IMG/VR virus record: IMGVR_UViG_3300035701_000016
Span: 11,104-75,103 of that record
From: a virus
Length of the DNA: 64,000 nt
Reading direction: 5' to 3' (one strand)
Positions 5,248 through 54,375 of the stretch are shown in pieces (positions within the stretch are counted from its first letter, which is position 1; the number at the start of each line of letters is the position of its first letter). A program made the translations under genes and the position numbers. The notes under the pieces were generated by a model. That model was given only the letters and a program-made list of their open reading frames with translations. It was not told where the DNA came from and did not search any database.

Positions 5248-5276
5248 AGTGTAGCACTAATGAAGGTATTTTGCAA
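5248..5276 (-). promoter_or_regulatory. sigma70-type promoter
   Basis: TTGCAA-17 nt-TACACT with TG extension, followed by AAAATT as in the promoter at 20438. Confidence 0.65.
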
Positions 5277-5285
5277 TCATTTGAG

Positions 5286-5747: not shown

Positions 5748-5757
5748 ATCTAATCTC

Positions 5758-13938: not shown

Positions 13939-13940
13939 TT

Positions 13941-16589: not shown

Positions 16590-16592
16590 AGT

Positions 16593-17342: not shown

Positions 17343-17344
17343 AG

Positions 17345-18187: not shown

Positions 18188-18498
18188 TAGATATTCTCCA
18201 ATTCTATAAATTGATATTTTTCGTTACCGTATATTCCTACGGTTACTCCAATACTAGGAAACATTTTTCCAAGAACTACTCCGGTTACGAATGATACCAC
18301 AACTTTTCCCATAGGAATTATGGCATCACATGCCGGATCAAAGTCAGCTAAGGACTTGACTATAGTTTCCTCTATATCCTCAGATCTTTCGTCCCCTCTG
18401 GTTATCAACTTAATCTCTGACGTATGCTGTTTCAACTTTGACACGTCATGAGAAGGGTCGATCACAAATATTCTTCTGAACTGATCTACTCTATCCAT
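18187..18498 (-). CDS. hypothetical protein
   Basis: Coupled to neighbours; AGGAGG Shine-Dalgarno. Confidence 0.65.
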   Translation of the reverse strand: MDRVDQFRRIFVIDPSHDVSKLKQHTSEIKLITRGDERSEDIEETIVKSLADFDPACDAIIPMGKVVVSFVTGVVLGKMFPSIGVTVGIYGNEKYQFIELENI

Positions 18499-35804: not shown

Positions 35805-36117
35805 TTCTATTACCTGATCTTGACTCCAAAAAGCACTGAATCCCAGTTATTGCAAAGAATCCTAGGATCACATCTCCAACAACAGAAGGTACAAACACTA
35901 GATAACATAACGGTATCGCAAACCATATTCCCAAGCAGAATGGACAGTTTATAAGTTTTGCGAAACTTACGATGAATCTGTTATCACTAACAGATGCATG
36001 TCTTCCAGATACTATCCTGAGATTACTGAATATGTCAATCGGTCCTTCATCCAAACTTATCAACTCAGCCAAACGGTAGCAAGCGAGACCAGCAAGAATT
36101 ATTCTTACTATATCCAT
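35797..36117 (-). CDS. DUF1360-like membrane protein
   Basis: LACYRLAELI..D.GP..IF..LR and CPFCLGIW. Confidence 0.7.
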   Translation of the reverse strand: MDIVRIILAGLACYRLAELISLDEGPIDIFSNLRIVSGRHASVSDNRFIVSFAKLINCPFCLGIWFAIPLCYLVFVPSVVGDVILGFFAITGIQCFLESRSGNRND

Positions 36118-38848: not shown

Positions 38849-38900
38849 TGGTTCTCCTCTACTATTTAAATAAGCACGATTAATTGGTTTCATAGCAAAC

Positions 38901-40340: not shown

Positions 40341-42053
40341 TCAACTTTTTTCCTTTTTGTATTCGTCTATCATGATCTGAAGTTCCTCGACCCTTCTCTT
40401 GAAGGAATGATTATCATCCGTAAATCTTTTTCCTTGTCTTGCTATTATTTCTCGCTCTCTTTCTTTGGGAAGCCACTCTCTGATCTTTTCACCCAGATCA
40501 TCAAAATCTTCCCATACTACCAGATGAACTCCATCTTCAAAACCCATGAAATATTCCATTCCTTCTATCTTTTGTTGGAATACAAAAGCTCCTGCATGAA
40601 GCATTTGGAATAATCTATTAGACACATAACCTATCGATTTTGGAAATAAATTGTCACCTATAGCAATCTTGGAAGAACGGTAGAGAACGTCTCCTGCAGA
40701 GAAGTCATATATGGTATTTCCGTCTGATCCTATATGAGAAGGCCACTGACCGAATAGACCTACCTTCAGATCCTTTTGTCTTCTCAACAATTCAGCCATC
40801 TTCTGTCTTCTAGGGTCATAACAATTCCCTAAAAATACAATGTCATATCTGTTCTTATTTATTTCTGAATCGGGAACCCTATTGTAATCCTCATATCCTA
40901 TCTGCCAGTATTTATAGTTGATGCCATAATCGACATAATCTTTGGCTATGTCGCCTATGGCAAATGATGCAAGATCGAACATTTTGCATATTTCTTTGTA
41001 CTCTTTAGATCCATGAACATTCTCATGATAATCACCGCTCCATGACATGAATATTGTATTCTTATATTCATCTTTCATTCTCATCATGAAGTCATAAGTA
41101 AATATCTTGGGATGTTGGAATTGAACCAAGCAAATATCAGGATTGAAATTATCAATATCATATTCCAATAAATCCAAATGACCCTGATAATTTATTTCAG
41201 ATACCAAATATTTCTCTGACAAAGCTTTTCTCAATCCAATCTTGGTTTTTAGCTGATGAGGAAATACTTTATCTTCGTACAGTGGAGCATAGGTAATTCT
41301 TGGAATTCTTTTGCATGGATTGGTAACGGTAGGAGAAAACTTGATGACTGGACCCAGAACACCATTCCTTGTCCATTTATTTCTCCACTTAGCAGAATCA
41401 GGATGACCTCCGGTAAGATGGTCAACAGGATTATTTAATTTTCTAAGGTCGTCATCTATCTGGAAATCATTAATACAAGCGCAAGGAATTCCTTCAACCT
41501 TAAATCCCATCTCTAGAACCTGACAGCTTAAATCTGAATCTCCACCATAGGATACATAATCATTCCATCCGCCACATTTTGTGAGTAACCATCTTGGAAT
41601 GATACATACTTGACCATATACTGTAGAAACCTTCTTACCGTTCCTAATAGCTGGCATACTGTCAAGGGTATATTCAGCAGAATGTCTATTTTGATAGAAA
41701 CAACCAATTCCTACATCCAGATGATCGTCCATGTAGGCTATGGCAAGTCTTATCCCCTCAAATCTGAACTCAACATCGTCATTCGGCATAATGACATATT
41801 TGCCCCTTGACCTATTGAATCCAACATTATATGCCTGAATTAGTCCTAACAAAGCACCCTGCTCTATTAGAACTATGTCATCTTGTTCTCTCATCCACTC
41901 CAAACTTCCGTCATTGCTTCCACCATCTACCATAACAATCTCGTACGGTATTCCTATACCGACGGATGATCTAACACTATAGATCATTCTCTTAAGAGAT
42001 TCAAATCTGTTATATGTTCCTGATACTATTGACACGTATGGATTTTCAATCAT
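40341..42053 (-). CDS. bifunctional glycosyltransferase (GT2 + CgeB-like GT-B domain)
   Basis: SIVSGTYNR, VDGGSNDG, PNDD, GGDSD; then DIVFLGN...SNRLF...HSFKRRV. Confidence 0.85.
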   Translation of the reverse strand: MIENPYVSIVSGTYNRFESLKRMIYSVRSSVGIGIPYEIVMVDGGSNDGSLEWMREQDDIVLIEQGALLGLIQAYNVGFNRSRGKYVIMPNDDVEFRFEGIRLAIAYMDDHLDVGIGCFYQNRHSAEYTLDSMPAIRNGKKVSTVYGQVCIIPRWLLTKCGGWNDYVSYGGDSDLSCQVLEMGFKVEGIPCACINDFQIDDDLRKLNNPVDHLTGGHPDSAKWRNKWTRNGVLGPVIKFSPTVTNPCKRIPRITYAPLYEDKVFPHQLKTKIGLRKALSEKYLVSEINYQGHLDLLEYDIDNFNPDICLVQFQHPKIFTYDFMMRMKDEYKNTIFMSWSGDYHENVHGSKEYKEICKMFDLASFAIGDIAKDYVDYGINYKYWQIGYEDYNRVPDSEINKNRYDIVFLGNCYDPRRQKMAELLRRQKDLKVGLFGQWPSHIGSDGNTIYDFSAGDVLYRSSKIAIGDNLFPKSIGYVSNRLFQMLHAGAFVFQQKIEGMEYFMGFEDGVHLVVWEDFDDLGEKIREWLPKEREREIIARQGKRFTDDNHSFKRRVEELQIMIDEYKKEKS

Positions 42054-42847
42054 GGAAGCTCCCTCTCTTCATCATGCTTAGGTCCGGTAAGAAAATCACG
42101 ATATCTTGTAGTAAGAATTGGAATATTTTTGACCCAACTTTCCTGTGCTATATTCCCACTATTGGTTCTGTGAGAAGTACCCCACTCCCATCTTGAGAAA
42201 TTTGGAAGACAATACAAACCTGACAACCAACCATGATTAATATATCCCTTTATGCACAAATCAACTTCCTCAGTATTTAGTGGAGCATATATCTCGTCAA
42301 AATAACCCAAAGTTTCCACCATGCTATGTCTCCACATCAAAGGTCCACGATTTACTGCATCTTTTATGTAGAATATATTTCTCTCGGCATCTTGTCTTTC
42401 AATCAATGATTTTCTCCATCCTATCATACCGTTATCTTCCAAATAGAAATTGAAACATGCCTGAGCAGATACGGCAAGAACTTCACTCCATCTAATGAAT
42501 GGTTTAAGTAATCTTTCATCAAAATTTTCCTCCACAGCAATCATATCATCTTGCATGTTGAGTATGAACGGTTCTCTGCATACCCTGTATCCAAGATTGC
42601 ACGCTTTATTCTCGAAAACTCCGTTGGATACTAAGATATTGTAATTGAATTTCTTTTCCGTAGATTCTATGAATTCCCCGGTAATTTCCTGAGATCTATC
42701 CGTACATCCGTCAAATACTATAACTAATTCTTTAACCAATGGAGAACAGTTATAGTATATTCCATTAAGAACATTTAAAATAATGTCCTCATGATTGAAA
42801 ACTGTTAGAACAATGCTAATCATAGATAGTGTTTGCCAAGAGAGCAT
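42050..42847 (-). CDS. GT2 glycosyltransferase
   Basis: SIVLTVFN, VFDGCTDRS, MQDD, EEVDLC. Confidence 0.85.
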   Translation of the reverse strand: MLSWQTLSMISIVLTVFNHEDIILNVLNGIYYNCSPLVKELVIVFDGCTDRSQEITGEFIESTEKKFNYNILVSNGVFENKACNLGYRVCREPFILNMQDDMIAVEENFDERLLKPFIRWSEVLAVSAQACFNFYLEDNGMIGWRKSLIERQDAERNIFYIKDAVNRGPLMWRHSMVETLGYFDEIYAPLNTEEVDLCIKGYINHGWLSGLYCLPNFSRWEWGTSHRTNSGNIAQESWVKNIPILTTRYRDFLTGPKHDEERELP

Positions 42848-43451
42848 CTCCGCAGACGCCCCCAGGATAGTCCTCTACCACTCTAAATGACGGTAGTAGC
42901 TCAAGAATTCTAGGGAGGGTACAGAATCCTTTGTATAGCTCAACATTCTCATATTCCGTGAAGAAACCCTTTACCTTGGTTCTGAATATCTCGAGACCTC
43001 CCATAATCATACGTTCTTCAGCCCCTTGTATGTCAGACCATACAAAGTCTATCACGTCAATTCTATGCAAAGCACAAAATGTGTCCAATCGTATAGTTGG
43101 AACTACATATTCTTCAACAAATGGAATCTGATCGAATACAGTTTTATGCAGCATGGGAACTTGAATAGATCCGGAAGCATCTCCATATCTATTAGGATTG
43201 GAAGATAATCCACCTGCAACATAAAAAGTAGCTTCACCATCCTCATCAGATATTGCTCCCTCGAATAGTGTAGCTTTAAGATTTAGAGCTCTAATCTTTT
43301 TTATGTTCTCTCTATCAGGCTCGAATAGATACAAATGAACATTAGGCCACATAAGGGAGAAATGTTGTGAATCCTCACCATAATGAGAACCAGCTTCTAC
43401 TATGGTAGGATCTGATCTCTTTACAAATTGACGAATCAAATCTTTGTTCAT
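42816..43451 (-). CDS. FkbM-family methyltransferase
   Basis: VEAGSHYG, FEP, TIRLD, DIQGAE, LYKG. Confidence 0.88.
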   Translation of the reverse strand: MNKDLIRQFVKRSDPTIVEAGSHYGEDSQHFSLMWPNVHLYLFEPDRENIKKIRALNLKATLFEGAISDEDGEATFYVAGGLSSNPNRYGDASGSIQVPMLHKTVFDQIPFVEEYVVPTIRLDTFCALHRIDVIDFVWSDIQGAEERMIMGGLEIFRTKVKGFFTEYENVELYKGFCTLPRILELLPSFRVVEDYPGGVCGDALLANTIYD

Positions 43452-44089
43452 AGTTTATCCGTTATGTAGATGGCATTCACTCCATCATTTTGAATCATAT
43501 CGTACAAATGAGATTTAGTCCAATTTGTAATCCAATCAAAATTGAATGCAGATTCAATGATCATCATCTTTGGTCTCCAGATATCTGCATTGAATCCCGA
43601 AAGAACAGAAGGTTCACCACCCTCAACATCTATAACGATTAGATCCAGATTGGCTGGAACTTTATGCTGACAAAGTATGGTATCCAATTTCATACCATAA
43701 GCCTCTATAAATTTTTCTGGAGAATATTTCCAACCCCATCCTCTGGCAAGTTCATTGGCAGCTATACTTTCATTCAGAGTGCAAGCATCATAGAAATCTG
43801 CGTCACTAAGCCAGAGTTTCACCATTCCTTCGTGATCGGTAGCGGCACATTCAAGAACGATAACTTTATTATTCTTGTGCATTTCTTTGCAATCTTCCGC
43901 CAACTGATGTATGGGCTCAATATAGATACCGTTCCAACCAGCCTCAGCCAATCCCCAAGTATTAGACCAGTTGAAACCATTATGAGCTCCGATCTCCACG
44001 AAATATCCATCAACCTTATCATTGAAATATTTCGTGTAGAGTTCAAAAAGATTCGTTATCTGACAATCTTTGGCAGATTTATAGCTCAT
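43448..44089 (-). CDS. FkbM-family methyltransferase
   Basis: FVEIGAHNG...SNT, WNGIYIEP, IDVEGGE. Confidence 0.88.
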   Translation of the reverse strand: MSYKSAKDCQITNLFELYTKYFNDKVDGYFVEIGAHNGFNWSNTWGLAEAGWNGIYIEPIHQLAEDCKEMHKNNKVIVLECAATDHEGMVKLWLSDADFYDACTLNESIAANELARGWGWKYSPEKFIEAYGMKLDTILCQHKVPANLDLIVIDVEGGEPSVLSGFNADIWRPKMMIIESAFNFDWITNWTKSHLYDMIQNDGVNAIYITDKL

Positions 44090-44619
44090 AGCAGATCCTC
44101 ACGGTAGGCAACAAATAGATCTCTGGGCTCGGCATGTTCGTTATTCTCCAGAATAATTTTGAACAGTGGATCGATTTCATGGACAGCTTCTATGATATCG
44201 TCTACCGTAACATCTACCCAATGTTGAAATCCCATCAGACGCATATCATCTGCAAGAATTGTTACTGGAAATCTATGGAGATCTCTGATTGCTCCTATCT
44301 CTTCAAGTATAGGAGTACCGGCAGTCCAATGTCCCTCATGAGCATCTAACCAGAACATAGTAGGATACTCTAGATAAGGAATTAGCTCCATTAGAACTGA
44401 AACAGAATCTCCGGTCAGAAGAGTTACCTGGGGATAATCTTTCAATCTATCCAGGGCAAATTGATGCCATTCTGTACTGATATCGATAGAGTAGATTGTG
44501 TCAAATCCTGCATCAACGGCGGTTTGTACCGTATTTCCGGTCTCTGTTCCAGTTTCCACAAAAATCTTGGACTGCCCTTTATATTTCAACAAAATATCCA
44601 GAGGAAGACTTGCTGACAT
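44086..44619 (-). CDS. class I SAM-dependent methyltransferase-like protein
   Basis: FVETGT..G, GDS, FWLDAH, PILEEI, ILADD. Confidence 0.75.
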   Translation of the reverse strand: MSASLPLDILLKYKGQSKIFVETGTETGNTVQTAVDAGFDTIYSIDISTEWHQFALDRLKDYPQVTLLTGDSVSVLMELIPYLEYPTMFWLDAHEGHWTAGTPILEEIGAIRDLHRFPVTILADDMRLMGFQHWVDVTVDDIIEAVHEIDPLFKIILENNEHAEPRDLFVAYREDLL

Positions 44620-44675
44620 TTTATTTCTCCCCGTACTGGTCGGCCTGGATAGACCGACCAGTACATATATCCCGA

Positions 44676-45002
44676 CTAAACCGGAGGTTCCACCGGAGGA
44701 GGAACAGGATTGGCTAAAACAGCAGCCTGAATAGCGGCACTTTTCTTATCCAGATCGTCAGCAAGTTTCAGCATCAAGATAGGATCGTAGGCATTGTTCT
44801 TGATGTAAATTGACAGATCTGTAACGAGAGTGATGATACTATCAGCAGCACCCTCAATTGCCGTAACACGAGTAACTAGAAGATCTACTTCACCAGCCAT
44901 TTTTCTAATCTCCTTTGCCATAAAAGAAATATTGGTTTCAATTCGATCCAATTCATTGAGGATCTTACGAATCTTTTCGTACAACCATATTTTCATCATC
45001 AC
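44676..45002 (-). CDS. coiled-coil hypothetical protein
   Basis: AGGAGG Shine-Dalgarno; followed by hairpin at 44633-44664. Confidence 0.6.
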   Translation of the reverse strand: MMMKIWLYEKIRKILNELDRIETNISFMAKEIRKMAGEVDLLVTRVTAIEGAADSIITLVTDLSIYIKNNAYDPILMLKLADDLDKKSAAIQAAVLANPVPPPVEPPV

Positions 45003-45009
45003 CTCCTGT

Positions 45010-45126
45010 TCAATCAGGTTCTACATTATCATCCTCAAACTGATCATCACCACAGTAATCATCATTCTCGGAGTCTACGGTAGAACACTCGTCAAGATCA
45101 GTCTGGGAAGAATCATTCGGACCCAT
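45010..45126 (-). CDS. 38-aa acidic peptide
   Basis: Read manually: MGPNDSSQTDLDECSTVDSENDDYCGDDQFEDDNVEPD; GGAG upstream; fills the gap exactly. Confidence 0.45.
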   Translation of the reverse strand: MGPNDSSQTDLDECSTVDSENDDYCGDDQFEDDNVEPD

Positions 45127-45128
45127 AG

Positions 45129-48095
45129 CTACTCCCATAAATTTGCCGAGATTAGTAATACTTCTTCATCATCATTTCTTCTCTTCTTCTTCTCCCACCA
45201 GAATGGTTCCGCATGTCCAGGAGTTACTGCTACGATAGGAGCAGAAGGTGAAGGAGATGCGCTCATGGAAGAAGATATGGACGGTGATGCACTGACACTA
45301 GCAGAGATGGATGAACTTATCGATGGAGATGCACTTACCGAAGCACTCTTAGAAGAAGATATGGATGGAGAGGCAGAAATTGAAGCACTAATGGAAGCAC
45401 TAACAGAAGCACTCTTAGAGGCACTAATTGATACACTTACAGAAGCACTAATAGAAGCACTCAGAGAAGCACTGACAGAAGCACTTATGCTAGGTGAGGC
45501 AGATATTGAGGCAGACATGCTAGCTGATTTGGAAGCACTTATCGATGCACTTACAGAAACAGAAATGCTAGCAGAAATACTAGAAGAAATACTTTCAGAA
45601 ATACTAGGTGAAGCACTAACAGATGCAGAAATAGAAGGACTAGCTGAAATTGAAGAAGATAAACTAGCTGAAACAGAGGCTGAAATAGATGGACTAGCAG
45701 ATATACTCGCAGATATACTTGCACTTATTGATACTGAAACTGAAGCTGACTCTGATGCTGATACACTAGCACTAATAGATGCACTTTCACTGGTGGATAC
45801 AGAAGCAGAAACCGATGCGGAAATAGAAGCACTAATTGAGGGTGATGCAGAAATTGAAGCCGATTCACTAGACGATACACTGGCTGAGACACTAGCACCA
45901 ATACTAGGTGAAGAACTAACACTAGAAGAAATACTAGGAGAAGCAGATACACTAGCAGAAATAGAGGCACTTATACTCGCAGATACCGAAGCACTAATAC
46001 TTGGTGAAGCCGAGATAGATGCTGAAACAGAAGCACTTACAGAAGCTGAAATACTAAGACTCGCACTAACTGATGAAGATACACTGGCACTAACACTAGC
46101 AGACTTAGATGATGATACAGAAGAGGATATTGAGGGAGAAGCACTAAGTGAAGCACTTAGTGATGCTGATACGGAAGCTGATATACTAAGACTAGCTGAA
46201 ACAGAAGAAGAAATAGAAGCGCTTACTGAAGCACTTATACTCAGACTTGCAGAGATAGATGTACTGACCGAAGCGGATATACTAGCACTTATACTGGGAG
46301 AAGCGGATATACTAGCACTAAGAGAAGCACTAACAGAAGAGGATATAGAAGGAGATGATGATACTGATGAACTAACAGAGGAACTCACACTAGCAGAAAT
46401 AGAGGGTGAGGCTGATACGGAAGCACTAACACTAGCACTTGTGGAAGCACTTATTGATGGAGAAGCTGAAACTGATCCAGAAACAGACGATGAAATACTA
46501 GCTGATAAAGATGCAGATACAGATGCACTGATTGAAGGAGATGCAGATACTGATGCACTAATTGATGGACTTGCACTGATACTTGCACTGATGCTAGGAC
46601 TAGCTGAAATACTTGCACTCTCAGAAGCACTTTCGGAAGCTGAGATAGAAGGAGATGCACTGATACTAGCAGAGACGGATGCAGATATGGAAGCAGATAT
46701 ACTAGCACTTTTCGAAGCTGATATAGAAGCCGAAATTGAAGCACTTTCTGATGCACTGATTGATGGGGAAGCCGAAATAGATGCGCTCTCACTTGCTGAT
46801 ACTGAAGCGGATATACTGGGACTAGCACTTATTGATGCGCTTTCACTTGCAGATATAGAAGAACTTATACTAGGACTTGCTGACACTGAAGCTGAGATGG
46901 AAGCACTTACTGAGGCGCTTATACTTGGAGATGCTGAGATACTGGCGCTTTCAGAAGCAGAAATAGAAGCACTAATTGAAAGTGAAGCAGAAATACTGGC
47001 CGAGACTGATGCACTTACGCTGGACGAGATACTTGGGCTGGCACTGATACTTGCAGAAATAGATGCACTAATACTTGCACTTATAGATAGACTAGCACTA
47101 ACACTAGCAGATACTGACGCTGATATTGAAGCACTTATACTAGCCGAAATACTCGGACTTGCCGATACACTAGCACTCACTGAAGCACTAACTGACGCCG
47201 AGATGGAAGGACTTGCACTTACTGACGCCGATTTCGAAGAAGAAACTGAGGAAGATATACTAGGAGAAGCAGAAATTGAAGAGGATACCGAAGAACTTAT
47301 TGAAGGTGATGAAGATACAGATGATGAAACTGAAGCACTAATACTAGGAGATGCACTTACGGATTTACTTTCACTTGCTGATACTGAAGATGATGCACTT
47401 CCCACCACTCCCTTGAATGACTTCTTCATCATGTGGGGGAAGAATATCCTAGGATGGCTGGCAATCGGAACAGTCCCCTGCTCAACCATCTTAGCCCCGT
47501 TCATCAGATCGGGTTCATCCCCACTACTATCCCCACGAATTAGGGGATAGTAGGCGACCAGACTTTCGGGTTTGACAAATAGCGGAGAGTAACCTACTGC
47601 TAGTTGCTTAATATCCGCCAAGGTTAAAGCCACATTCCAGAAACCGACTTCGGCCAAAATCGCTTCTGCCGCCACTTTCCAATGAGAAGAGGTCGAATAC
47701 AACATAGTACCAAGTGTAGTTCTGCTTACAGTTGTGGCCGGAACTCGACTGGTAGTTTCATCCCCACCGCCTACTCCATTTGTATAACCAGTTCGTAAAG
47801 TAGCAGAGCTAAATACTGCGGCTGCATGATTCCACGCATTAACATTTGTAGCAGGCCCATAAGACGAACTGCTCGCACCTGCCGCCCAAGTTGTCGCTCC
47901 TACTGTTCCCGTTGTTGTTATAAGTCTAAGGCCAAACCCATCAGGGGCAGCATTTGTCGAAGTCAGATATACCAAGGACTGTTCTTGTGTGAATCCTGAT
48001 GGATATACCCAACACGCCATAGTCAGCGGCGTGGCTGTAATTAAGCCAGTCGCATTAAGAAAATAATTCGAGGTACTATGAACACCTCGTGCCAT
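45129..48095 (-). CDS. LamG/concanavalin-like domain + serine-rich repeat (SRR) protein
   Basis: TMACWVYP...WNHAAAV...Y.NG...[10 protein letters not shown] LamG signature; ~720 aa of (S-X)n SASIS/SASPS/SASVS; short charged C-terminal tail. Confidence 0.88.
45243..47400 (-). repeat. degenerate 6-bp-period coding repeat (Ser-X dipeptides)
   Basis: Recurrent gcact/gaagca/atacta units on +; synonymous codons vary throughout. Confidence 0.9.
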
Positions 48096-48595
48096 TATGT
48101 TTCCTTGACTTCTACTGCAAGCAATTCGGCATCCGTAGTTACGTCATCCGTACCTGCTGACCCATCCGCATCCCGGCGAACTTTCAGGCGGAACATTTCA
48201 CCAGCCGCCAAACTATCCATTTGTGCCCCATTGGTGAATGTGATTGTTACGAGAGTTGTAACTCCACTTGTTCCGTTTGGATTACCTGCCGCACTCTGAA
48301 CTGCGGCAAAACTATCCGCATCCATATCCAGAGAAGCATCATCCATACGCTCAATAGATACCGACCAATAGGCGCTGCCCGATGTGGCCGATGAGAACAT
48401 GACATGCAAGTAGACTGTCAGTCCTCCACCCGCATAATTACGTGGCAGGATACCGGAGAAAACCGCTTCTTCGTCCGCCGCACCATCAAAGTCAAGAACT
48501 GGATGATAGTTACGTAAATCCAGTGTGGCATAGATAGTTGCCGGAGGTTCATTACAATAAGGATTAAATACTGCTAAAGTATCACCGCTTGCCAT
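48095..48595 (-). CDS. hypothetical beta-rich virion-associated protein
   Basis: Coupled to SRR gene; FRLKVRRDA...DD jelly-roll-like pattern. Confidence 0.6.
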
Positions 48596-48882
48596 TAGTC
48601 TACCTCCCCGAATACCTGTTTGAGGATATTCAGATTAAAACGCATGAGAATTACCGCTACCAACAACAGCGACTTTTGAGAAGTAGTTGCAACGGTACGA
48701 AATGGGGTTGGAAGAGTGTTATTATAACTGACTGAGTTGGCATCCACCCAGGCATCCGCCGCCACAATCGCCGCCGTGAATTGGGTCTTTGTAAATGCTC
48801 CAGTCTGTTCGCGCAGGTTGGACCAATAACGTGAAAGACCTCGTTTTATTCTATCAATATCCACAGTTGATAATGTTGCCAT
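48595..48882 (-). CDS. hypothetical protein
   Basis: Start MATLST behind GGAG; coupled to next gene. Confidence 0.6.
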   Translation of the reverse strand: MATLSTVDIDRIKRGLSRYWSNLREQTGAFTKTQFTAAIVAADAWVDANSVSYNNTLPTPFRTVATTSQKSLLLVAVILMRFNLNILKQVFGEVD

Positions 48883-49024
48883 TGTATCATCTCCATATGC
48901 TGATTGAACGACTTCTTGAAGTGTGTCTCCACGAGTATGACAATCCAAGTATAAGATATTAATTACCGATGTTTGTTCTGGACGATAATATCCAGTTTTC
49001 CAATAATGATCCCAACTGAACCTC

Positions 49025-49939
49025 CTATGGAATAGATTCCCATCCAGGAACAGGCCAGAACTTCTCTACCAACCATGATAGAGAATGAATTTGTTTATCC
49101 CATTTTCCTTCGAAAAATAATTCTCTACATTGTTTCTTCGAGCGATTTACCTGTTTCTGCGACATATCGTACGGAAAACTGAAGTCTCCACCTTGAGTTC
49201 TAAACAGATGAGCATAATATGTTTTGTGATCAACCATGACCCTTCCACCACTAAGCCACGTCTTAGCAGCTACTTCTATGCCCTGAGATCCCCATGATCC
49301 AAAACCTTCATCACATATATTCAAATCAAACCACTTATCTTTTGTCAACATAAAACATGATCCCTGAAGAGACATGGTCTCGGTAAGATCTCCTTGTCCC
49401 TCAGGTCTCTTTTTAAAATCATTAAAGTACTGGAAATGCGGTTCTGAATCGAAACAATACGAAGTAGACTGAGGATTCTCTTTAGCCTTCCAAATAATCT
49501 TTCTGTAAAGATTTGTACCACCACAAACTTCACACTTCTCAGGGGTAGGACCCTGATATGTTCTTTTTCCACATTTCCTACACTTCCAGTCGAAAGCCCA
49601 TAAGTTACGCATGATCGGAACTATTGTCCAATCATCCTGTATATCCTCTAACAATACTCTATCAAAACCCTGGGCAAACGAGCAATGAGCATCAGCTTTC
49701 ATGATATATTTGGAATCAGCCAACTTAACTCCATCGTTACAGGCTGCTCTCTGTCCTATAGATACGGGATGAAAGAGTACGGTAACATCAGCATTCTGAT
49801 CGATAGGAGGATCCGCCCATTGTCCATCCAGAACTACTATCACTTCAGTATTGGCTTCCTTGTGCTGAAGGATATCCTGAACAGTTTTAGCCACAAACAT
49901 TTCGTTTCTGGACGGAATAACTACACTCAAATCATGCAT
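49025..49939 (-). CDS. GT2 glycosyltransferase (paralogue of 53473-54375)
   Basis: SVVIPSRNE, VVLDG, KADAHC, QGSCF, WLSGGR, YAH, F.PVPGW; DxH and WLxGG resemble polypeptide-GalNAc-transferase-like GT-A. Confidence 0.85.
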   Translation of the reverse strand: MHDLSVVIPSRNEMFVAKTVQDILQHKEANTEVIVVLDGQWADPPIDQNADVTVLFHPVSIGQRAACNDGVKLADSKYIMKADAHCSFAQGFDRVLLEDIQDDWTIVPIMRNLWAFDWKCRKCGKRTYQGPTPEKCEVCGGTNLYRKIIWKAKENPQSTSYCFDSEPHFQYFNDFKKRPEGQGDLTETMSLQGSCFMLTKDKWFDLNICDEGFGSWGSQGIEVAAKTWLSGGRVMVDHKTYYAHLFRTQGGDFSFPYDMSQKQVNRSKKQCRELFFEGKWDKQIHSLSWLVEKFWPVPGWESIP

Positions 49940-50537
49940 CTTTCCTCAGTTTGGAAATGATAACTTTTCCGGGATAATCTTCTGTAACATAATTTGTGAA
50001 TTTTTCGAATAACGGATCAATAAGCGTAGCATGTCTACTCCATATGAAAAACATACCTCCTGAGATGGGAGATATATTCCATCTATGTTCATTAGCATAG
50101 TTATGAAGTTTACCGTTATCTACATAGTGTCTAAGATATATCCAACCTCCAACTTTGCAAACTCTATACATTTCTCTAATAGCCAGAAGAGGATTTCCAC
50201 AATGATCCAGAGAATTTACGCAATGAACTATGTCAAATTGTTCATTATCATACGTCAATAGTCTCATATCCTGCTTCTCTATCCTAATCTCAGGAATAAC
50301 TCCCTTTTCAACCAGCATAGAATTATATTCATCTGCTAGAAGATCGGATGGATACAGATGAATTTCTGTCTCAGGCCAAGTTGATCCAGTAGTAGAAAAC
50401 ATACCAGCTCCAAGATCAGCAATATCTACTATCTTCTTATTTCCTATCATCTCCCCGAAATAATAGTCCAACTGAAATATTTTATTGAATTGCTTCTCTT
50501 TGTAAGGAAGCTTATTTCTGTAGAATCTTAAGGTCAT
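49932..50537 (-). CDS. class I SAM-dependent methyltransferase
   Basis: IADLGAG, FDIVHCVNSLDH, EMYRVCKVGG. Confidence 0.85.
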   Translation of the reverse strand: MTLRFYRNKLPYKEKQFNKIFQLDYYFGEMIGNKKIVDIADLGAGMFSTTGSTWPETEIHLYPSDLLADEYNSMLVEKGVIPEIRIEKQDMRLLTYDNEQFDIVHCVNSLDHCGNPLLAIREMYRVCKVGGWIYLRHYVDNGKLHNYANEHRWNISPISGGMFFIWSRHATLIDPLFEKFTNYVTEDYPGKVIISKLRKDA

Positions 50538-51021
50538 TCAAGAACTCCAGAGAACACATCTTACTTATGACAGTGGTATGAGGATTGAATATATTATAGT
50601 CAAATCTATATTTAAATCTTGAGTATATTCCGGAATAATGATAGAAATTATCTTCCTTAGGATTGGAATCATGCAGAACTATGTAATCTACCAAGTCTTC
50701 TATCCTTACAGCTAGATAGGATCTAAATTCCATAGGATTTACATCTATAATTCCTATATCAAAATGTCTACTAAGATCAATAGTTGTCCAATCAGCGATT
50801 AAATGAGTTTCATGATGAGTATTATTATTTTTTCCGAATAAATTTAAGTATTTCTCATAATTCTCATATGAAACCAAATCCCTATCCTGAGAAACACAAG
50901 CCCAGAATAGAAGTGGTGTACTATATAATCCCATACCTAATTCAAGAACATTTCCAGTAGTATGCTCTAGAAGTTTTAAAAGAACGGGTATGTGAGAACC
51001 CCACCTCATTGTAATTTTCAT
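50512..51021 (-). CDS. SAM-dependent methyltransferase-like protein
   Basis: VLELGMGLYST, SYEN, IID, VLHD. Confidence 0.7.
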   Translation of the reverse strand: MKITMRWGSHIPVLLKLLEHTTGNVLELGMGLYSTPLLFWACVSQDRDLVSYENYEKYLNLFGKNNNTHHETHLIADWTTIDLSRHFDIGIIDVNPMEFRSYLAVRIEDLVDYIVLHDSNPKEDNFYHYSGIYSRFKYRFDYNIFNPHTTVISKMCSLEFLNDLKILQK

Positions 51022-51692
51022 ACTAGACCTAACTTTGTTCTAACAACTCTGGTCGTGCCCCAATACGGTAGGGATCTGGTGGTTTCACCCGCGATAGTCA
51101 GAGTATTGGCTCGCAATCCCAGTCCAGTCTTTATACTCACTACGGGAATATCCGTACCATACCAATTCCAATTCTGATTCAAATTCCTGAAAGGATTGGT
51201 AGGATAATGTCCATTCAACCACAGAGGCTTTCCTTCCAATTCCTTTTCCAACAGATCCAAATAGTATTCTCTGCCTATAATTTGAGCTCCTTCACACCAT
51301 CTCTTCTTGAAGAAGTATCCTCTATGATGCTTCAGAATCCAAACATTACTATATCTATATATTGAATCTAGTTTGCTTGGTTCTATGTCAAAATAGTCTC
51401 TGGGATAAAGATTGTCTGCCTCTGCTGATATAACAAATGGAGTAAATATACTTTGACAGGCTATCTGAATTTGTCTGTATAGATTATGATCATTGGCTCC
51501 AACATCTCCCACACAGATATTTTCTCCGAAATCAATCTGTTTCTGAGATACTGACAGAATAGGAAATCCGGGATTCATTCTCATGAGAACTTTTTGTATT
51601 TTTTTCTCGAAATTTTCATCCTCTCTGTTGGATGTATAGTAGATAATAGTTGCGTCGTTCTTATTCATATAGAGTGACCGCAATAAGGACAC
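51018..51692 (-). CDS. GT-A fold glycosyltransferase-like protein
   Basis: TIIYYTSN, SVS.K.IDFGENICVGD.G, AEADNLYP; paralogue of next gene. Confidence 0.7.
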   Translation of the reverse strand: MSLLRSLYMNKNDATIIYYTSNREDENFEKKIQKVLMRMNPGFPILSVSQKQIDFGENICVGDVGANDHNLYRQIQIACQSIFTPFVISAEADNLYPRDYFDIEPSKLDSIYRYSNVWILKHHRGYFFKKRWCEGAQIIGREYYLDLLEKELEGKPLWLNGHYPTNPFRNLNQNWNWYGTDIPVVSIKTGLGLRANTLTIAGETTRSLPYWGTTRVVRTKLGLV

Positions 51693-52423
51693 TGATTGAC
51701 CATATGATTTTCATCATATAATTTCATAACCTGATCAGCTGTACCCCACGGAACCAACTCAGTTCCTCTCAACGGACCGAGAGCCTTATTTTCACCAACC
51801 GGATGCTCTCTACCTACCGGAGTAGATACATATCCAAGAGCAAGTGGATGAGAGAAGACAACCATTGGTCGTCCACCCCAACCTTCCTCGGTAGAAATTG
51901 GTTTCAATCCTAACTTTCTATCGTATCGTCCTGGTTCTCCACAGAATTGGGTGTCATAGGCAGGAAATTTTTCAAGACGTTCAGTTAGAGATCTTACCAA
52001 AAGATCTCTGGTACATATTAGACTAAATATTATCATTCTGTGTCGCCATGAGAATACCATAGGTTTTGACCATGTGAATATACTCCACTTATTCATATCG
52101 TACCATAAAGTATCGTCACTGATTGGTCTTCCCTGAAAATGCTGTCTAGGATATAGAACATCATCTTCAGCCATAGCCACATATTTCGTTTTTGCAGCAA
52201 TCGCACCTGTAAGGATCTGCCAGTAGATATTGCGATTGGATCTACCGATATCTCCTACGCAGATGTTTTCTCCGAAATCCATAGGTTTATGAGATACAGA
52301 TATCAAAGGAGTATCCTGTATAGCTTCCTTTAGAACCCTTTTAGTATTATCTACAAAGTAGGGATTGTGTTCATCCAGATAATTACTGGTATAATATATG
52401 ATTGTTAGATCAGTATGTATCAT
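51665..52423 (-). CDS. GT-A fold glycosyltransferase-like protein
   Basis: TIIYYTSN, DFGENICVGDIG, TKYVAMAEDDVLYP. Confidence 0.72.
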   Translation of the reverse strand: MIHTDLTIIYYTSNYLDEHNPYFVDNTKRVLKEAIQDTPLISVSHKPMDFGENICVGDIGRSNRNIYWQILTGAIAAKTKYVAMAEDDVLYPRQHFQGRPISDDTLWYDMNKWSIFTWSKPMVFSWRHRMIIFSLICTRDLLVRSLTERLEKFPAYDTQFCGEPGRYDRKLGLKPISTEEGWGGRPMVVFSHPLALGYVSTPVGREHPVGENKALGPLRGTELVPWGTADQVMKLYDENHMVNQCPYCGHSI

Positions 52424-52953
52424 AATTTAATCCAGAACCAACTTGGAACTCTTTCCTTCGTAAGATACCAGGGATCAATTCTGTGTTCCTTGACATAGGC
52501 ATCCACAGCAGTTATTACTCCAAATTCCTGTCTATTGAAGTAGTCATGTCCAGACACTATTCCACCAGATCTTACTTTCCTATTCCATTGAATGATATCT
52601 GTAACAGCATAGTCAAACGTATGATTGGCATCTATGTAAACAAAATCTAAACTACCATCCTCAAACTCAGGAATGGCATCCATGCTACTACATTTCATGA
52701 AAGTAACGTTATGATGTCTAAGTAACTTCCTAGCCTGATGAAAATGCTCATCATGAAAACCACTGTAGTCCCAGGGATCATTTTCGTCATCTTCCCACAA
52801 ATCTATACAATACAATTTAACTCCTGGTACACTATCGCAAATATATCGTGAGAATTTACCTTTGGCTACACCAATCTCAACTCCAGTCTTGTATCCCAGA
52901 GTATTGAATAATCCTGCCAGATCGAATCTTGTATCAACTCCGAAGTAATTCAT
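52420..52953 (-). CDS. Methyltransf_24-type O-methyltransferase
   Basis: GVEIGVAKG, IDLW, LDFVYIDANH, KVRSGGIVSGHDY. Confidence 0.88.
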   Translation of the reverse strand: MNYFGVDTRFDLAGLFNTLGYKTGVEIGVAKGKFSRYICDSVPGVKLYCIDLWEDDENDPWDYSGFHDEHFHQARKLLRHHNVTFMKCSSMDAIPEFEDGSLDFVYIDANHTFDYAVTDIIQWNRKVRSGGIVSGHDYFNRQEFGVITAVDAYVKEHRIDPWYLTKERVPSWFWIKL

Positions 52954-53498
52954 GGCTTGAACCAGAACCAGGAAGTTTCTCTATCCAGTGTAAGATAAAC
53001 TTGTGGAATCTTGTGAACAGAGACATAACAATCTACAGCTTGCACAACACCACCATCTCCTGCAGGGAAATGGAAATAATCATGACCGGAAACAATTCCT
53101 CCCGACTTTACTTTCTTACTCCATTCAATGATATCTTCCATGACATAATCAAAATCATGATTGCCATCTATATAGACGAAATCTAAACTCTTATCGTTTA
53201 TACATTTTACAGCATCCATACTCATCATCTTAAGAAATTCTACTCCGAAAAATCCCCAAAGATTACTTCTGGCTATCTCGTAAAATTCCTGCTGATGATT
53301 CTTTGAAGCTTTTACATCATATCCTGGATACATATCCCATATATCCACACAGTATAACCTAAGATTAGGAATAGCCTTGCATAATTTCAGAGAGTATTCT
53401 CCCTTCATAACTCCTATCTCAGCCCCTACTCGAAATCCTCTATCCATGAAGAATTTCGGCAAATCATCTCGTTTATTCACATTGGGATATTTCATCAC
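52950..53498 (-). CDS. Methyltransf_24-type O-methyltransferase
   Basis: GAEIGVMKG, VDIW, LDFVYIDGNH, KVKSGGIVSGHDY; tandem paralogue. Confidence 0.88.
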   Translation of the reverse strand: MMKYPNVNKRDDLPKFFMDRGFRVGAEIGVMKGEYSLKLCKAIPNLRLYCVDIWDMYPGYDVKASKNHQQEFYEIARSNLWGFFGVEFLKMMSMDAVKCINDKSLDFVYIDGNHDFDYVMEDIIEWSKKVKSGGIVSGHDYFHFPAGDGGVVQAVDCYVSVHKIPQVYLTLDRETSWFWFKP

Positions 53499-54375
53499 CT
53501 ATCTCCGATTTCTCTGCCCATCCAGGGACAGGTGAAAATTTTTCAATCAACCATTCCAAGGGCAAAGTCTGTTTAGGCCATGCCTCTTGAAAGTTCAACC
53601 ATTTCATGGTATAATTCCTAGGTACATAGACATCTTGATGAAGTGAATATCCACGATGCTTTCCTTTATACCAGTGAGCATACCATGTTTTCTTATTCCT
53701 AACAATTCTACCACCTGACAACCAACACTTCAAAGCGATTTCTTGAAACTCGGCAAAGAATGTACCATAATTAATGTCATCCAATAATTCCAACTCTTTA
53801 TAGTATGACCTGTGCATGAACCAGCATGATCCCTGAGCAGCCATCAGATCAACAATTAAATCATCCTTCAGAGACTTATCCTTATTCTTCTCGTCCCAGA
53901 TTAAACCATGCAATCCTACCAATTCACCCTTACGGTAGGGATAACACATATATTCATAATCGATATCCGGTCTGCCATCTTCTAGAATTGACCAGGTATC
54001 CGGTAGAAGTCTCTTTCGTCTGGGAACAGATATCCAGTTATCCTCACAGTCAGCAACCAGTTTTGTATCGTATCCTACGTCAAACATGCAGTGAGCATCA
54101 CATTTCAATATGTGCTCTCCTCTTGCTATCTCTACTGCCGAATTGATTGCCGGTCTCATTCCTCTCGCCAGTCCTCTATGAAGTATGATTACTTTCTTGG
54201 AAGGTGGATCCAAGGGAGTCTCTCCATACGGTAGGGGAATGGTTGGCATAGGATCAGGCCAATATCCGTCAAGAACAACTATGATCTCAATCTCACCCTG
54301 AGCTTTGGCAAGAAGATCATCAACAGTCTTAACTAGATACGGTTCATTCCTGGCAGGGATAATGATACTAATCAT
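53473..54375 (-). CDS. GT2 glycosyltransferase
   Basis: SIIIPARNE, VVLDG, KCDAHC, QGSCW, WLSGGR, WYAH; coupled to the portal stop. Confidence 0.85.
   Translation of the reverse strand: MISIIIPARNEPYLVKTVDDLLAKAQGEIEIIVVLDGYWPDPMPTIPLPYGETPLDPPSKKVIILHRGLARGMRPAINSAVEIARGEHILKCDAHCMFDVGYDTKLVADCEDNWISVPRRKRLLPDTWSILEDGRPDIDYEYMCYPYRKGELVGLHGLIWDEKNKDKSLKDDLIVDLMAAQGSCWFMHRSYYKELELLDDINYGTFFAEFQEIALKCWLSGGRIVRNKKTWYAHWYKGKHRGYSLHQDVYVPRNYTMKWLNFQEAWPKQTLPLEWLIEKFSPVPGWAEKSEIGDEISQCE

Follow-up and report, generated by a model that had tools for sequence, protein, structure and literature searches.

What do the sugar enzymes of a phage late operon modify when they surround a protein built largely of serine dipeptides, and where would that protein go? 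We address this for an uncultured phage from sediment, whose genome is a complete 75,103-bp IMG/VR virus record with terminal repeats. Positions refer to the window, the 64,000-nucleotide stretch of that record that was analysed. The region of interest is 14 kb long with every gene on the minus strand, and lies between the following late genes.

56523..57863, minus strand: large terminase (Pfam Terminase_3, E = 8.9e-10; PHROG terminase large subunit)
54375..56513, minus strand: putative portal, 712 aa, labelled from position and lineage-wide conservation
38901..40286, minus strand: putative scaffold/prohead protease, 461 aa, labelled on the same basis
37487..38893, minus strand: major capsid protein, HK97 fold (AlphaFold model, pLDDT 76)

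The terminase gene marks the start of the late (virion) operon. A Foldseek search with the capsid model gave 274 matches at E ≤ 0.001, of which those listed are phage capsids and encapsulins. The first-pass annotation had named the flanking genes portal and prohead protease. Their positions and conservation agree with this, but neither protein has a Pfam, PHROG or PDB sequence match. The putative portal follows the terminase in all relatives (31-56% identity), while the putative protease precedes the capsid gene across the lineage, has a coiled-coil C-terminal half and contains invariant His160 and Ser208.

The enzyme genes are chained by overlaps within the late operon, and the portal stop codon and the start of the first glycosyltransferase (GT) overlap as TAATG, so that the two genes are coupled as had been proposed. 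The region divides into module A (48.9-54.4 kb) and module B (44086-40341), and six GT genes (seven domains) and seven methyltransferase-fold genes surround the repeat gene.

The LamG/Ser-repeat protein

The central gene and its immediate neighbours are as follows.

48595..48948, minus strand: unk117, small protein; overlaps the gene after it as TAATG; 10 LamG loci have homologues
48095..48595, minus strand: unk166, small LamG partner; highly conserved (up to 86% identity), in viral-only Atlas clusters
45129-48095, minus strand: 988-aa LamG and Ser-repeat protein (open reading frame and Pfam)
47421..48095, minus strand: its N-terminal LamG domain (Laminin_G_3, residues 9-163; E = 7.7e-11; 42.8 bits, cut-off 27.6)
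45243..47402, minus strand: its array of (X-S) dipeptides (residues about 232-951), which would serve as O-glycosylation acceptor and fibre shaft
45132..45242, minus strand: its C-terminal tail, which runs from a Pro-rich through a basic stretch to an acidic patch and an amphipathic end (15 residues)
44676..45002, minus strand: unk108, small and probably coiled-coil (weak Pfam coiled-coil matches), 3' of the repeat gene

The predicted architecture of an N-terminal LamG domain and long Ser repeats is thus confirmed. The strict array extends over about 718 residues, with serine at 358 of the 359 register positions, and is the sole Ser/Thr-rich tract within the window. The alternating residue X is mostly Ala (128), Ile (80), Val (58), Pro (31) or Ser (26), with Glu and Leu (11 each) and Lys (7), and the prolines recur mostly every 10, 14 or 18 residues. 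All six serine codons occur (AGT 128, TCT 110, TCA 86, and the others) and exact DNA repeats all fall short of 24 nt, which indicates that the pattern is maintained as protein sequence and did not come from a simple expansion of DNA. The array also gives a weak Bactofilin-like Pfam match. P0004, P0005 and L004's Ser-repeat protein end in tails resembling that of the 988-aa protein, and unk108 has a single homologue, in L048.

The genes for unk117, unk166 and the LamG protein form a coupled trio, with unk117 first, and a homologue of unk166 lies immediately upstream of 61 of 82 LamG open reading frames in metagenome loci. The LamG domain has at least 398 metagenomic relatives and is 45-62% identical regardless of what comes after it. 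Relatives with the same head carry Leu-rich or other 20-residue repeats in place of the Ser tract, and one LamG relative lacking Ser repeats has the same C-terminal motif. Judged from these sequences, the Ser tract is an interchangeable shaft.

Docking ends are usually marked by their conservation and by a small, conserved partner gene that precedes them. LamG is the conserved end here and follows unk166, so a docking role, with unk166 or by way of it, is more likely for it than that of a free lectin tip; the tip orientation in the first-pass annotation is accordingly doubtful. Mounting on the head had been proposed from gene position alone. In other phages the unk166-LamG pair sits among virion genes at differing positions, so that the head is a possible rather than an established site.

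The enzymes

Module A comprises eight genes. Counts of homologues refer to 80 viral loci found with the GT profile.

53473..54375, minus strand: GT2_a, soluble ppGalNAc-T-like (GT27-like) GT-A glycosyltransferase (Pfam GT2; PDB profile)
52950..53498, minus strand: Methyltransf_24 methyltransferase a (Pfam E = 4.7e-15); homologues in 28/80
52420..52953, minus strand: Methyltransf_24 methyltransferase b (Pfam E = 1.2e-19); homologues in 25/80
51665..52423, minus strand: unk252, GT-A-fold glycosyltransferase (AlphaFold model from 63 sequences, pLDDT 93); homologues in 45/80
51018..51692, minus strand: unk224, paralogue of unk252 (31% identity and common motifs); homologues in 20/80
50512..51021, minus strand: unk169, methyltransferase-fold protein (Atlas model, pTM 0.91); homologues in 22/80
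49932..50537, minus strand: class I SAM methyltransferase of Methyltransf_11 type (Pfam E = 8.9e-10); homologues in 11/80
49025..49939, minus strand: GT2_b, second ppGalNAc-T-like glycosyltransferase, with an inserted CxxC...CxxC ribbon (Pfam GT2; alignment; PDB profile); homologues in 53/80

A profile of GT2_a and GT2_b matches ppGalNAc-T1 (PDB 1xhb) with E = 2.7e-12 over 250 of 291 positions, covering nearly the whole catalytic domain, and at the profile level the polypeptide GalNAc-transferases are the closest solved relatives of both enzymes. The DAHC motif aligns with DAHCE of 1xhb, as does the Gal/GalNAc-T motif region with its counterpart, and the third histidine is kept; D93, H95 and H234 are invariant in the alignment, so that the metal ligands are conserved. 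The profile also matches CgT, a GT of the Fap1 pathway (PMC5063993). GT2_a, which has at least 369 viral relatives, is a candidate initiating enzyme of module A, though features of GT27 type in a sequence are no proof that the acceptor is a polypeptide.

Neither unk252 nor unk224 matches a Pfam family. A Foldseek search with the unk252 model found SpsA, AvpGT and WrtF with probability 1.0, and its E86 and D88 are invariant. The Atlas model of unk169 resembles Methyltransf_24 and Methyltransf_3 clusters (TM 0.73-0.82), but Pfam, PDB-profile and hhalign searches gave no support for its identity as a methyltransferase.

The genes of module B and those beyond the capsid gene are the following.

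44086..44619, minus strand: unk177, O-methyltransferase-like, lineage core (profile match to YrrM, 5zw3, E = 1.8e-5)
43448..44089, minus strand: FkbM methyltransferase a (Pfam Methyltransf_21, E = 2.7e-14)
42816..43451, minus strand: FkbM methyltransferase b (Pfam Methyltransf_21, E = 4.4e-14)
42050..42847, minus strand: GT2_c glycosyltransferase (Pfam GT2, E = 3.4e-9)
40341..42053, minus strand: two-domain glycosyltransferase (GT2 + Glyco_trans_1_2; Pfam), lineage core
36119..37432, minus strand: post-capsid GT2 (Pfam GT2, E = 6.3e-24); its CCGG motif is invariant and its end weakly HhH-like
35797..36117, minus strand: DUF1360 membrane protein (Pfam), conserved beside the post-capsid GT

The HMM and structure searches therefore placed the enzymes in GT and methyltransferase families or folds, largely as first annotated. 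Four of the six GT genes were found by Pfam and the paralogues at 51665 and 51018 through the fold model; the further GT2 after the capsid gene also stands. Five of the seven methyltransferases were found by Pfam, and the evidence is weaker for unk177 (YrrM profile) and unk169 (Atlas model). The post-capsid GT profile matches K4CP (7.6e-38) and CgT (5hea; 4e-28).

Among the 28 head-module genes checked (31.6-57.9 kb of the window), a clear hydrophobic segment was found only in the DUF1360 protein (KD 2.14), and none of the GT or methyltransferase enzymes has a membrane segment. The 988-aa protein has neither a signal peptide nor LPXTG, as had been noted, and with soluble enzymes this makes modification in the cytoplasm reasonable.

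Linkage of enzymes to Ser-x tracts, and other readings

In the 80 viral GT loci we scored as a hit any protein with at least 20 in-register serines. A Ser-x-repeat protein lies within 10 kb of the GT in 67 of them and within 1.5 kb in 62, kinship being ignored; when the GTs were clustered at 70% identity, 50 of 58 clusters included a Ser-repeat locus. The control, the capsid lineage of this phage, has such a protein in 2 of 43 loci. Module A travels as a set across the GT loci. L048 keeps the window's order from portal to GT2_b, followed by a Ser-repeat protein, and the Methyltransf_11-type gene adjoins GT2_b in L130 and L168. In L130 the order is as in the window (methyltransferase, GT2_b, unk117, unk166, LamG-Ser-repeat protein), whereas L128, whose LamG protein has Leu-rich repeats, has different genes upstream.

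The same linkage is seen within two families. In the capsid lineage a single relative (L004/L010) has a Ser-repeat protein in this slot, and it alone also has homologues of GT2_a/GT2_b, Methyltransf_24 and unk252. Within the LamG family the module A enzymes are limited to Ser-repeat members: among loci of at least 5 kb, four have both, one the Ser repeat alone, none the enzymes alone and 29 neither (Fisher p = 1e-4, kinship ignored), although the co-occurrence in the two families reflects no more than one to three events that are independent. Among prokaryote genomes, most of them CPR bins, a strict Ser-x protein lies within 8 kb in 14 of 78 loci with the same GT, so the enzymes can exist without a nearby strict Ser-x tract.

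The pairing of GT and Ser-x protein is widespread in uncultured phages. The first-pass annotation knew of no described phage system of this kind; our literature search likewise found no paper describing a phage Ser-repeat protein with a glycosylation cassette, but the arrangement is not unique to this phage. Taken together, these genomic associations support the view that the GTs at 53473 and 49025 are functionally linked to the Ser-x tract. We think it fairly probable that the 988-aa protein is a fibre-like late protein, borne on the virion, whose Ser tract is glycosylated by module A.

A different picture emerges for module B, and the claim that the whole cassette is one system dedicated to the Ser-repeat protein fails. 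The two-domain GT is 43-60% identical in seven relatives (L004-L007, L011, L012, L018), six of them without a Ser-repeat protein; the post-capsid GT follows the capsid gene in most of the 43 related loci and is thus nearly lineage-wide; GT2_c has no homologue in any of the 80 GT loci. Since unk177, the two-domain GT and the post-capsid GT all occur in close relatives lacking a Ser-repeat protein, where they flank scaffold and capsid genes, they must have another acceptor there. The enzymes of our phage might then glycosylate other virion proteins (capsid, tail tube or neck), with the Ser-repeat protein an unmodified flexible fibre that shares the slot, a slot that across the lineage is full of glycan enzymes (sulfotransferases, epimerases, GTs) without Ser-x proteins. 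We consider this unlikely, given that the capsid and remaining window proteins have no Ser/Thr-rich tails and that module A, not module B, tracks Ser-x proteins closely in both the viral loci and the LamG family.

The Ser-repeat protein could instead be glycosylated yet act off the particle, released on lysis or active within the cell, for example as a sink for host sugar nucleotides, a decoy or a factor in matrix or adhesion. No recognisable capsid- or tail-binding domain was found in the 988-aa protein, and relatives carry non-structural cargo in this slot. However, the gene is translationally coupled inside the virion operon, the unk166-LamG pair keeps company with virion genes elsewhere, and other phages have their Ser-x tracts in fibre-like proteins or in ones encoded immediately behind the major head protein. 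This makes an off-particle role quite unlikely, and the protein is probably carried on the virion.

Glucosylation of DNA and O-antigen conversion are common activities of phage GTs, and the enzymes might act on phage DNA bases or host envelope polysaccharide with the Ser tract an unglycosylated spacer. The post-capsid GT is 'GtrB-like' by PHROG, and its weak HhH-like end, together with a separate candidate DNA-modification block at 11.6-15.7 kb, means that some GTs could act on DNA. Yet the genes lie in the late virion operon away from replication genes, they lack the membrane segments needed for lipid-linked envelope modification, and the structures they most resemble are of enzymes that act on polypeptides; nor would this reading account for the tight linkage to Ser-x tracts. 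We regard this as very unlikely. Most improbable is a sugar-free shaft in which the array folds by itself as regular beta-structure with Ala, Ile and Val inside and Ser outside, for while the strict alternation, the proline spacing, the Bactofilin-like match and the 20-residue hydrophobic repeats at the same place in relatives would suit it, it leaves unexplained why GT27-like enzymes follow such tracts, and the Pro-rich (SPSxS) tracts of other phages fit a regular beta-solenoid poorly.

Proposed mechanism and known systems

For a glycosylated, virion-borne fibre, the Ser tract would be the substrate of module A's soluble enzymes, late in infection and in the cytoplasm of the host. The ppGalNAc-T-like GTs (53473, 49025) would place the first sugar on the serine hydroxyls, the GT-A paralogues (51665, 51018) would extend the glycan, and the four methyltransferase-fold proteins of module A would O-methylate the sugars. 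This would yield a shaft resembling a stiff, mucin-like bottle brush. In our phage, module B and the post-capsid GT may lengthen this glycan or modify another virion component. We infer the sugars on the tract, their identity and methylation, and the incorporation of the protein into the virion and its site.

The nearest phage parallel is the modification of mycobacteriophage capsid and tail tube by phage-encoded GTs in Che8, Corndog/cluster O and Myrna, with an O-methyltransferase added in cluster O (Freeman et al. 2023, Cell Host Microbe, as cited in PMC11600133 and PMC12619734). They share with our phage soluble GTs encoded among virion genes, in cluster O a methyltransferase, and cytoplasmic modification and a glycan-bearing particle, the last two being proposed from genes in our case. 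Their acceptors are short C-terminal extensions of capsid and tail-tube subunits; extensions of this kind are absent from the capsid here, where the candidate is instead a dedicated Ser-x tract of 718 residues belonging to a separate LamG protein. Our phage also encodes far more enzymes (seven GT domains, seven methyltransferases), the first of them GT27-like.

The SRR glycoproteins found in Gram-positive bacteria (Fap1, with its (E/V/I)S repeat, GspB, PsrP and SraP) are encoded with GT clusters and an accessory Sec system (PMC6973325, PMC5063993). They too have hundreds of Ser-x dipeptides, glycosylated stepwise in the cytoplasm by several clustered GTs, as we propose here, and CgT is among the PDB matches of the phage GTs. 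The phage carrier differs in being a phage protein with a LamG head and neither signal peptide nor LPXTG; the phage genes scanned include no GT-B initiating pair of GtfA/GtfB type, and methyltransferases stand in place of an O-acetyltransferase.

With eukaryotic GT27 enzymes (PDB 1xhb, 4d0t) the phage GTs share the GT-A domain, DxH, the Gal/GalNAc-T motif region and the third histidine. The natural acceptors of GT27 are Ser/Thr-rich mucin repeats, and the Ser-rich phage tract is a candidate acceptor. The phage enzymes are smaller (about 300 aa) and soluble, without membrane anchor or ricin-type lectin domain, GT2_b has its inserted Cys4 ribbon, and with low identity the match is one at the profile level.

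Phage tail and head fibres generally combine a conserved N-terminal attachment domain with swappable distal parts. We know of no characterised phage fibre described as having a LamG anchor and a glycosylated Ser-x shaft. The logic of the phage fibre is nevertheless the same here: what varies between relatives is the shaft and the C-terminal modules, and what stays conserved is the N-terminal LamG domain together with unk166.

The serine-repeat protein and its phage

The ORF at 45129–48095 on the minus strand encodes a protein of 988 residues. Residues 9–163 match Laminin_G_3 with 42.8 bits (Pfam gathering cut-off 27.6), and these are followed by a tract of ~718 residues (about 232–951) in which serine occupies 358 of the 359 register positions, the alternate position being mostly Ala, Ile, Val or Pro. 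All six serine codons are used, with AGT and TCN mixed, and no stretch of DNA of 24 nt or longer is exactly repeated. The periodicity is therefore kept by protein-level selection, not by slippage. The short tail runs from a basic through an acidic patch into an amphipathic stretch and ends in ...LLISANLWE. No other tract among the window ORFs is Ser/Thr-rich. There is neither signal peptide nor LPXTG motif; the N-terminus belongs to the conserved LamG domain, and hydropathy over 19 residues peaks at 1.46. Thus the description in the first-pass annotation, an N-terminal LamG domain with ~720 aa of serine repeats, stands, and sequence end and hydropathy agree with its statement that signal peptide and LPXTG are lacking.

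A 906-aa ORF on the plus strand (44830–47550) is not a gene, being the antisense of the repeat and a by-product of its codon make-up. Apparent 'joints' within the repeat gene in the contig overlay were discarded as short low-identity cross-matches from other Ser-repeat genes or from the array itself. Mimicry of a scaffold C-terminus by the tail, as a targeting signal to the capsid interior, was dropped because the resemblance is too weak. Just before the window (genome 9876–11021, minus strand, L286) lies the gene for a 381-aa protein with a 27-residue Ser-x linker and then a short C-terminal helix; judged by eye, its N-terminal region looks like a GH25-type lysozyme. This protein might possibly be a second, minor acceptor.

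The IMG/VR record is a complete virus of 75,103 bp with direct terminal repeats, the window being bases 11104–75103, and all long ORFs of the window are on the minus strand. The phage is of siphovirus type.

Packaging and tail genes of the window named by Pfam and PHROGs
56523–57863, minus strand, large terminase
27504–31430, minus strand, tape measure
26560–27504, minus strand, Dit-type tail protein

The DNA comes from a sediment metagenome and the phage is uncultured. Identical short contigs, pieces of the repeat gene included, are present in a second sediment sample of another study; no RNA run is listed among the sequencing runs containing phage DNA. Neither blastn nor tblastn found a close relative among deposited phage genomes, and the sole blastn match of the terminase/portal region to phage genomes is 96 nt of terminase.

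Sequence searches with the capsid protein (37487–38893) found no match in the PDB nor, by tblastn, in INPHARED phages, and it is therefore identified by its fold. This is the HK97 fold: Foldseek matches phage capsids and encapsulins at probability 1.0, and gives 274 hits at E ≤ 0.001. The protein is unusually rich in cysteine, C96, C285, C289 and C400 being invariant and C39 and C136 nearly so in an alignment with 29 relatives (A8). The portal (54375) and the scaffold/protease (38901) gave no match in Pfam, PHROGs (as single sequences and with 15–16 relatives each) or PDB profiles, and 'portal' and 'prohead protease' are putative labels resting on position and conservation only. In the scaffold-like protein (38901–40286; alignment A7) His160 and Ser208 are invariant and lie 48 residues apart in the N-terminal half, a spacing that may resemble that of the His-Ser pair of HK97-type prohead proteases; the C-terminal half is coiled-coil. 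A long portal was rejected as a sign of a cassette-bearing phage, since cassette-free relatives have long portals too.

Glycosyltransferases and methyltransferases

Glycosyltransferase (GT) genes are found on the stretch that separates the terminase/portal genes from the capsid gene, and another comes immediately behind the capsid gene. Module A (48.9–54.4 kb) comprises GT2_a (53473), two Methyltransf_24 genes, unk252 (51665), unk224 (51018), unk169 (50512), the methyltransferase MT11 (49932) and GT2_b (49025). Module B comprises unk177 (44086), two FkbM genes, GT2_c (42050) and a GT2+GT1 gene (40341). Overlaps of 1–32 nt chain three runs of genes: portal to GT2_b; the small genes unk117 and unk166 with the LamG gene; and unk177 to the GT2+GT1 gene at 40341. 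No GT or methyltransferase protein of the cassette has a membrane segment, nor does the post-capsid GT.

Five methyltransferases of the region have Pfam assignments, as do four GT genes, of which one has two domains; the GT2 that immediately follows the capsid gene is assigned as well. No Pfam family covers the two paralogues at 51665 and 51018. A model made from 63 relatives (pLDDT 93) has a GT-A fold and matches SpsA, AvpGT and WrtF; the sequence-based routes for the unk252 family, namely hhalign with GT2 and a profile search of the PDB, were both negative. This family has an acidic DxD-like motif, with E86 and D88 invariant in 63 sequences. The unk177 family (44086) matches the O-methyltransferase YrrM in a profile search, and is not significant against Methyltransf_24 by hhalign. 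For unk169 (50512) a structure comparison, in which the Atlas model matches O-methyltransferase clusters, is the sole support for a methyltransferase fold; nothing came from PDB profiles, from hhalign with two methyltransferase profiles or from Pfam run on 21 relatives. With the HMM and structure searches proposed at first pass now run, Pfam, profiles and models assign each enzyme as GT or methyltransferase. The original numbers are upheld, namely six GT genes that hold seven domains, and seven methyltransferases, of which unk177 and unk169 have weaker evidence.

A profile built from GT2_a, GT2_b and their two homologues from one related phage finds polypeptide GalNAc-transferases as its best solved relatives (1xhb, E 2.7e-12). 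These are the enzymes that start mucin-type O-glycosylation, by moving GalNAc from UDP-GalNAc onto Ser/Thr of a polypeptide. The 1xhb alignment covers positions 4–253, nearly the full catalytic domain, with DAHC on the DxH motif and the Gal/GalNAc-T motif region aligned; the third metal-binding His is also aligned to 1xhb and is invariant in enzymes of the GT2_a/GT2_b type. GT27 enzymes have a ricin-type lectin domain and a type II membrane anchor, whereas GT2_a and GT2_b are 300–304 aa long, lack both and have no further Pfam domain. Their sequences thus resemble the GT27 catalytic core, yet they are not GT27 members in the full sense. The matches of the profile also include CgT, a GT-A enzyme of the Fap1 serine-rich-repeat pathway (PMC5063993).

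Enzymes of the GT2_b type (49025–49939 in the window; L010:5401–6321) have a CxxC...CxxC insert within the GT-A domain, which is likely to be a zinc ribbon; the GT2_a type lacks it. The post-capsid GT (36119–37432) has an invariant ...CCGG... motif (alignment A13) and is near lineage-wide, always accompanied by a DUF1360 membrane protein. Its closest solved relative is the chondroitin polymerase K4CP (E 7.6e-38), and most relatives have a longer form of ~600 aa, the window copy being without their additional GT-like domain at the N-terminus.

Three comparisons of gene neighbourhoods

With the capsid protein as query we obtained 43 related viral loci; a viral-contig scan with the portal alone gave no matches. 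The common gene order in this lineage is terminase, portal, variable slot, scaffold-like gene, capsid, GT2 and DUF1360. The portal-to-scaffold slot (L004–L047) is hypervariable, from −3 bp (no gene) to >8 kb, and across the lineage it abounds in glycan enzymes, namely sulfotransferases, GTs, methyltransferases and sugar epimerases/dehydratases. Of 97 ORFs in the slot that are 150 aa or longer, eight match Sulfotransfer_3 and four Sulfotransfer_1. Other slot ORFs encode NDP-sugar epimerases/dehydratases, UDP-glucose dehydrogenase, a hexapeptide acyltransferase, Mu F-like proteins and a collagen-repeat protein.

The GT2+GT1 gene is present in the closest relatives (L005, L006, L007, L011, L012, L018), unk177 in all of them except L005, and the post-capsid GT in L005, L007, L011 and L012, those whose fetched DNA extends beyond the capsid gene. 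None of these relatives has a Ser-repeat protein, and their module B genes and post-capsid GT must thus have another acceptor. A Ser-repeat protein occupies the slot in one relative only, L004/L010 (68% capsid identity); it has 1213 aa, a different N-terminus, four SPSxS-type repeat blocks and a similar acidic/amphipathic end. Within the lineage, homologues of GT2_a, GT2_b, a Methyltransf_24 and unk252 are found in L004/L010 alone.

In this relative an additional gene of 431 aa stands between the scaffold-like and capsid genes (L004:8663–9958); its N-terminus is lysozyme-like by eye, with no significant Pfam hit. In a distant relative, L038, genes for two Ser-x-repeat proteins are found on the downstream side of the capsid gene (13937–15892 and 16587–18785); the fetched part has no GT2_a/b homologue, and the contig ends within the second Ser-x gene. 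In L007 the slot holds a 644-aa fibre-like protein (5219–7153) that has no Ser repeats, behind a 123-aa gene. The slot may thus generally house accessory fibres.

The second comparison began from the enzymes. Searched against viral contigs, the GT2_a/GT2_b profile brings up at least 369 relatives, and we counted proteins with at least 20 in-register serines around the best 80 of these loci, with no phylogenetic correction. A Ser-repeat protein lies within 10 kb in 67 of the 80, and within 1.5 kb of the GT in 62, against 2 of the 43 capsid-lineage loci as control. Clustering at 70% GT identity leaves 58 clusters, 50 of them with a Ser-repeat locus. Partners in the same 80 loci are GT2_b (53), unk252 (45), unk224 (20), Methyltransf_24 (28 and 25), unk169 (22) and MT11 (11); module B genes do not accompany the GT2_a/GT2_b relatives there. 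One locus (L048) keeps the window order from portal to GT2_b, followed by a Ser-repeat protein, and in a common group of ~40–45-kb phages a Ser-repeat protein of ~300 aa separates the GT from the major head protein. The window cassette has the largest methyltransferase complement within these comparisons. Prokaryote genomes that carry the GT are for the most part CPR/Patescibacteria bins, and the partner enzymes there are the ones seen in the viral loci; this hints at host range. A strict Ser-x protein lies within 8 kb of the GT in only 14 of 78 prokaryote loci, and the linkage is therefore not absolute.

The third comparison followed the LamG domain, which has at least 398 metagenomic relatives, most of ~220–250 aa. 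A viral-contig scan with the domain alone gave two distant loci only; the contigs of the relatives P0002–P0005 were reached via a metagenome scan. Of 82 LamG ORFs (L128–L207), 61 have an unk166 homologue as their immediate upstream neighbour; unk166 is the better conserved of the pair, with up to 86% identity. The two form a conserved two-gene unit on hundreds of metagenomic contigs, mostly phage; an Atlas search with unk166 found unnamed viral clusters only.

Some LamG family members are extended by quite different repeats. Of the LamG loci that span 5 kb or more, 4 of the 5 with Ser-x repeats have module A enzymes vs 0 of the 29 without (Fisher p = 1e-4, uncorrected for phylogeny, the four positives belonging to two or three phage types). 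The Ser-x locus L130 (60% LamG identity) has MT11, GT2_b, unk117, unk166 and LamG ordered as in the window, and the upstream genes of L128, which has Leu-rich repeats (56% LamG identity), are unrelated. L175, with Ser-x repeats, and P0002, with Leu-rich 20-residue repeats, have the LamG head and a C-terminal motif in common. The serine tract thus behaves as an interchangeable shaft.

Interpretation and relation to known systems

Three tests agree, at the level of sequence comparison, in pointing to module A as a portable cassette tied to Ser-x tracts and to the 988-aa protein as its candidate acceptor in this phage. The first-pass annotation had taken all the enzymes as a single serine-rich-repeat (SRR) cassette. 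That is retained for module A, which follows Ser-x tracts, and given up for module B and the post-capsid GT, which are lineage genes and not SRR-specific. The mechanism that fits best for the 988-aa protein is one in which the serine tract would be O-glycosylated stepwise in the cytoplasm and the sugars would then be methylated. Two further proposals are also revised. Mounting on the head is only a possibility read from gene position, and in L154 the unk166–LamG pair lies ~2.8 kb downstream of the major head protein, behind four small genes; the supposed free lectin tip, the conserved LamG-plus-unk166 end, looks more like a docking end.

It is a serious possibility, short of a probable one, that many uncultured phages, probably of CPR/Patescibacteria and other sediment/groundwater hosts, build mucin-like glycoprotein fibres. 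Portable soluble GalNAc-transferase relatives, GT-A enzymes and sugar methyltransferases would decorate Ser-x shafts spliced into varied virion proteins in place of folded repeat shafts. Here the product would be a LamG fibre in the head block, with a programmable methylated glycan coat for adhesion or shielding. If true, there would be a much larger and more elaborate form of virion glycosylation, with a dedicated mucin-like acceptor and relatives of the animal mucin-initiating transferases, and with at least 369 viral GT loci it would be common among environmental phages. Protein O-glycosylation would then be a general tool of particle design, for host adhesion, protection from proteases and defences, and colloidal behaviour in sediments. 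Small soluble polypeptide GTs and sugar methyltransferases with a simple repeat acceptor would be attractive for glyco-engineering, and would help to show how far the GT27-like catalytic domain extends, in evolution, beyond eukaryotes.

To our knowledge, experimental proof of virion glycosylation is restricted to mycobacteriophages, on short tails of capsid and tail-tube proteins. Gram-positive bacteria have Ser-x repeat glycoproteins accompanied by GT clusters (PMC6973325, PMC5063993). The 988-aa protein shares their long Ser-x region (~718 residues) but lacks their extended signal peptide and LPXTG anchor. The bacterial system begins with the GlcNAc-transferase pair GtfA/GtfB (GT4 and DUF1975), whereas the GT domains that Pfam finds in the 23 scanned genes of the window are only GT2 and one Glyco_trans_1_2, with no DUF1975; SecA2, SecY2 and Asp export genes are absent among the genes scanned by HMM at 31.6–57.9 kb. 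We found no paper joining phage, serine-rich repeat, glycosyltransferase and virion, and no description of phage Ser-x acceptor proteins with GT27-like enzymes. The window contributes a LamG/unk166 carrier, a location in the portal-to-capsid slot, a clean split between portable and lineage modules, evidence for shaft swapping and the methyltransferase complement noted above. Mycobacteriophages encode virion glycosylation, cluster O having an O-methyltransferase and three GTs (Freeman et al. 2023, as cited in PMC11600133 and PMC12619734). Their GT genes lie within the virion/late block, as do those of the window. Their acceptors are C-terminal extensions of capsid and tail-tube subunits, whereas in the window the Ser/Thr-rich segment is in the 988-aa protein only.
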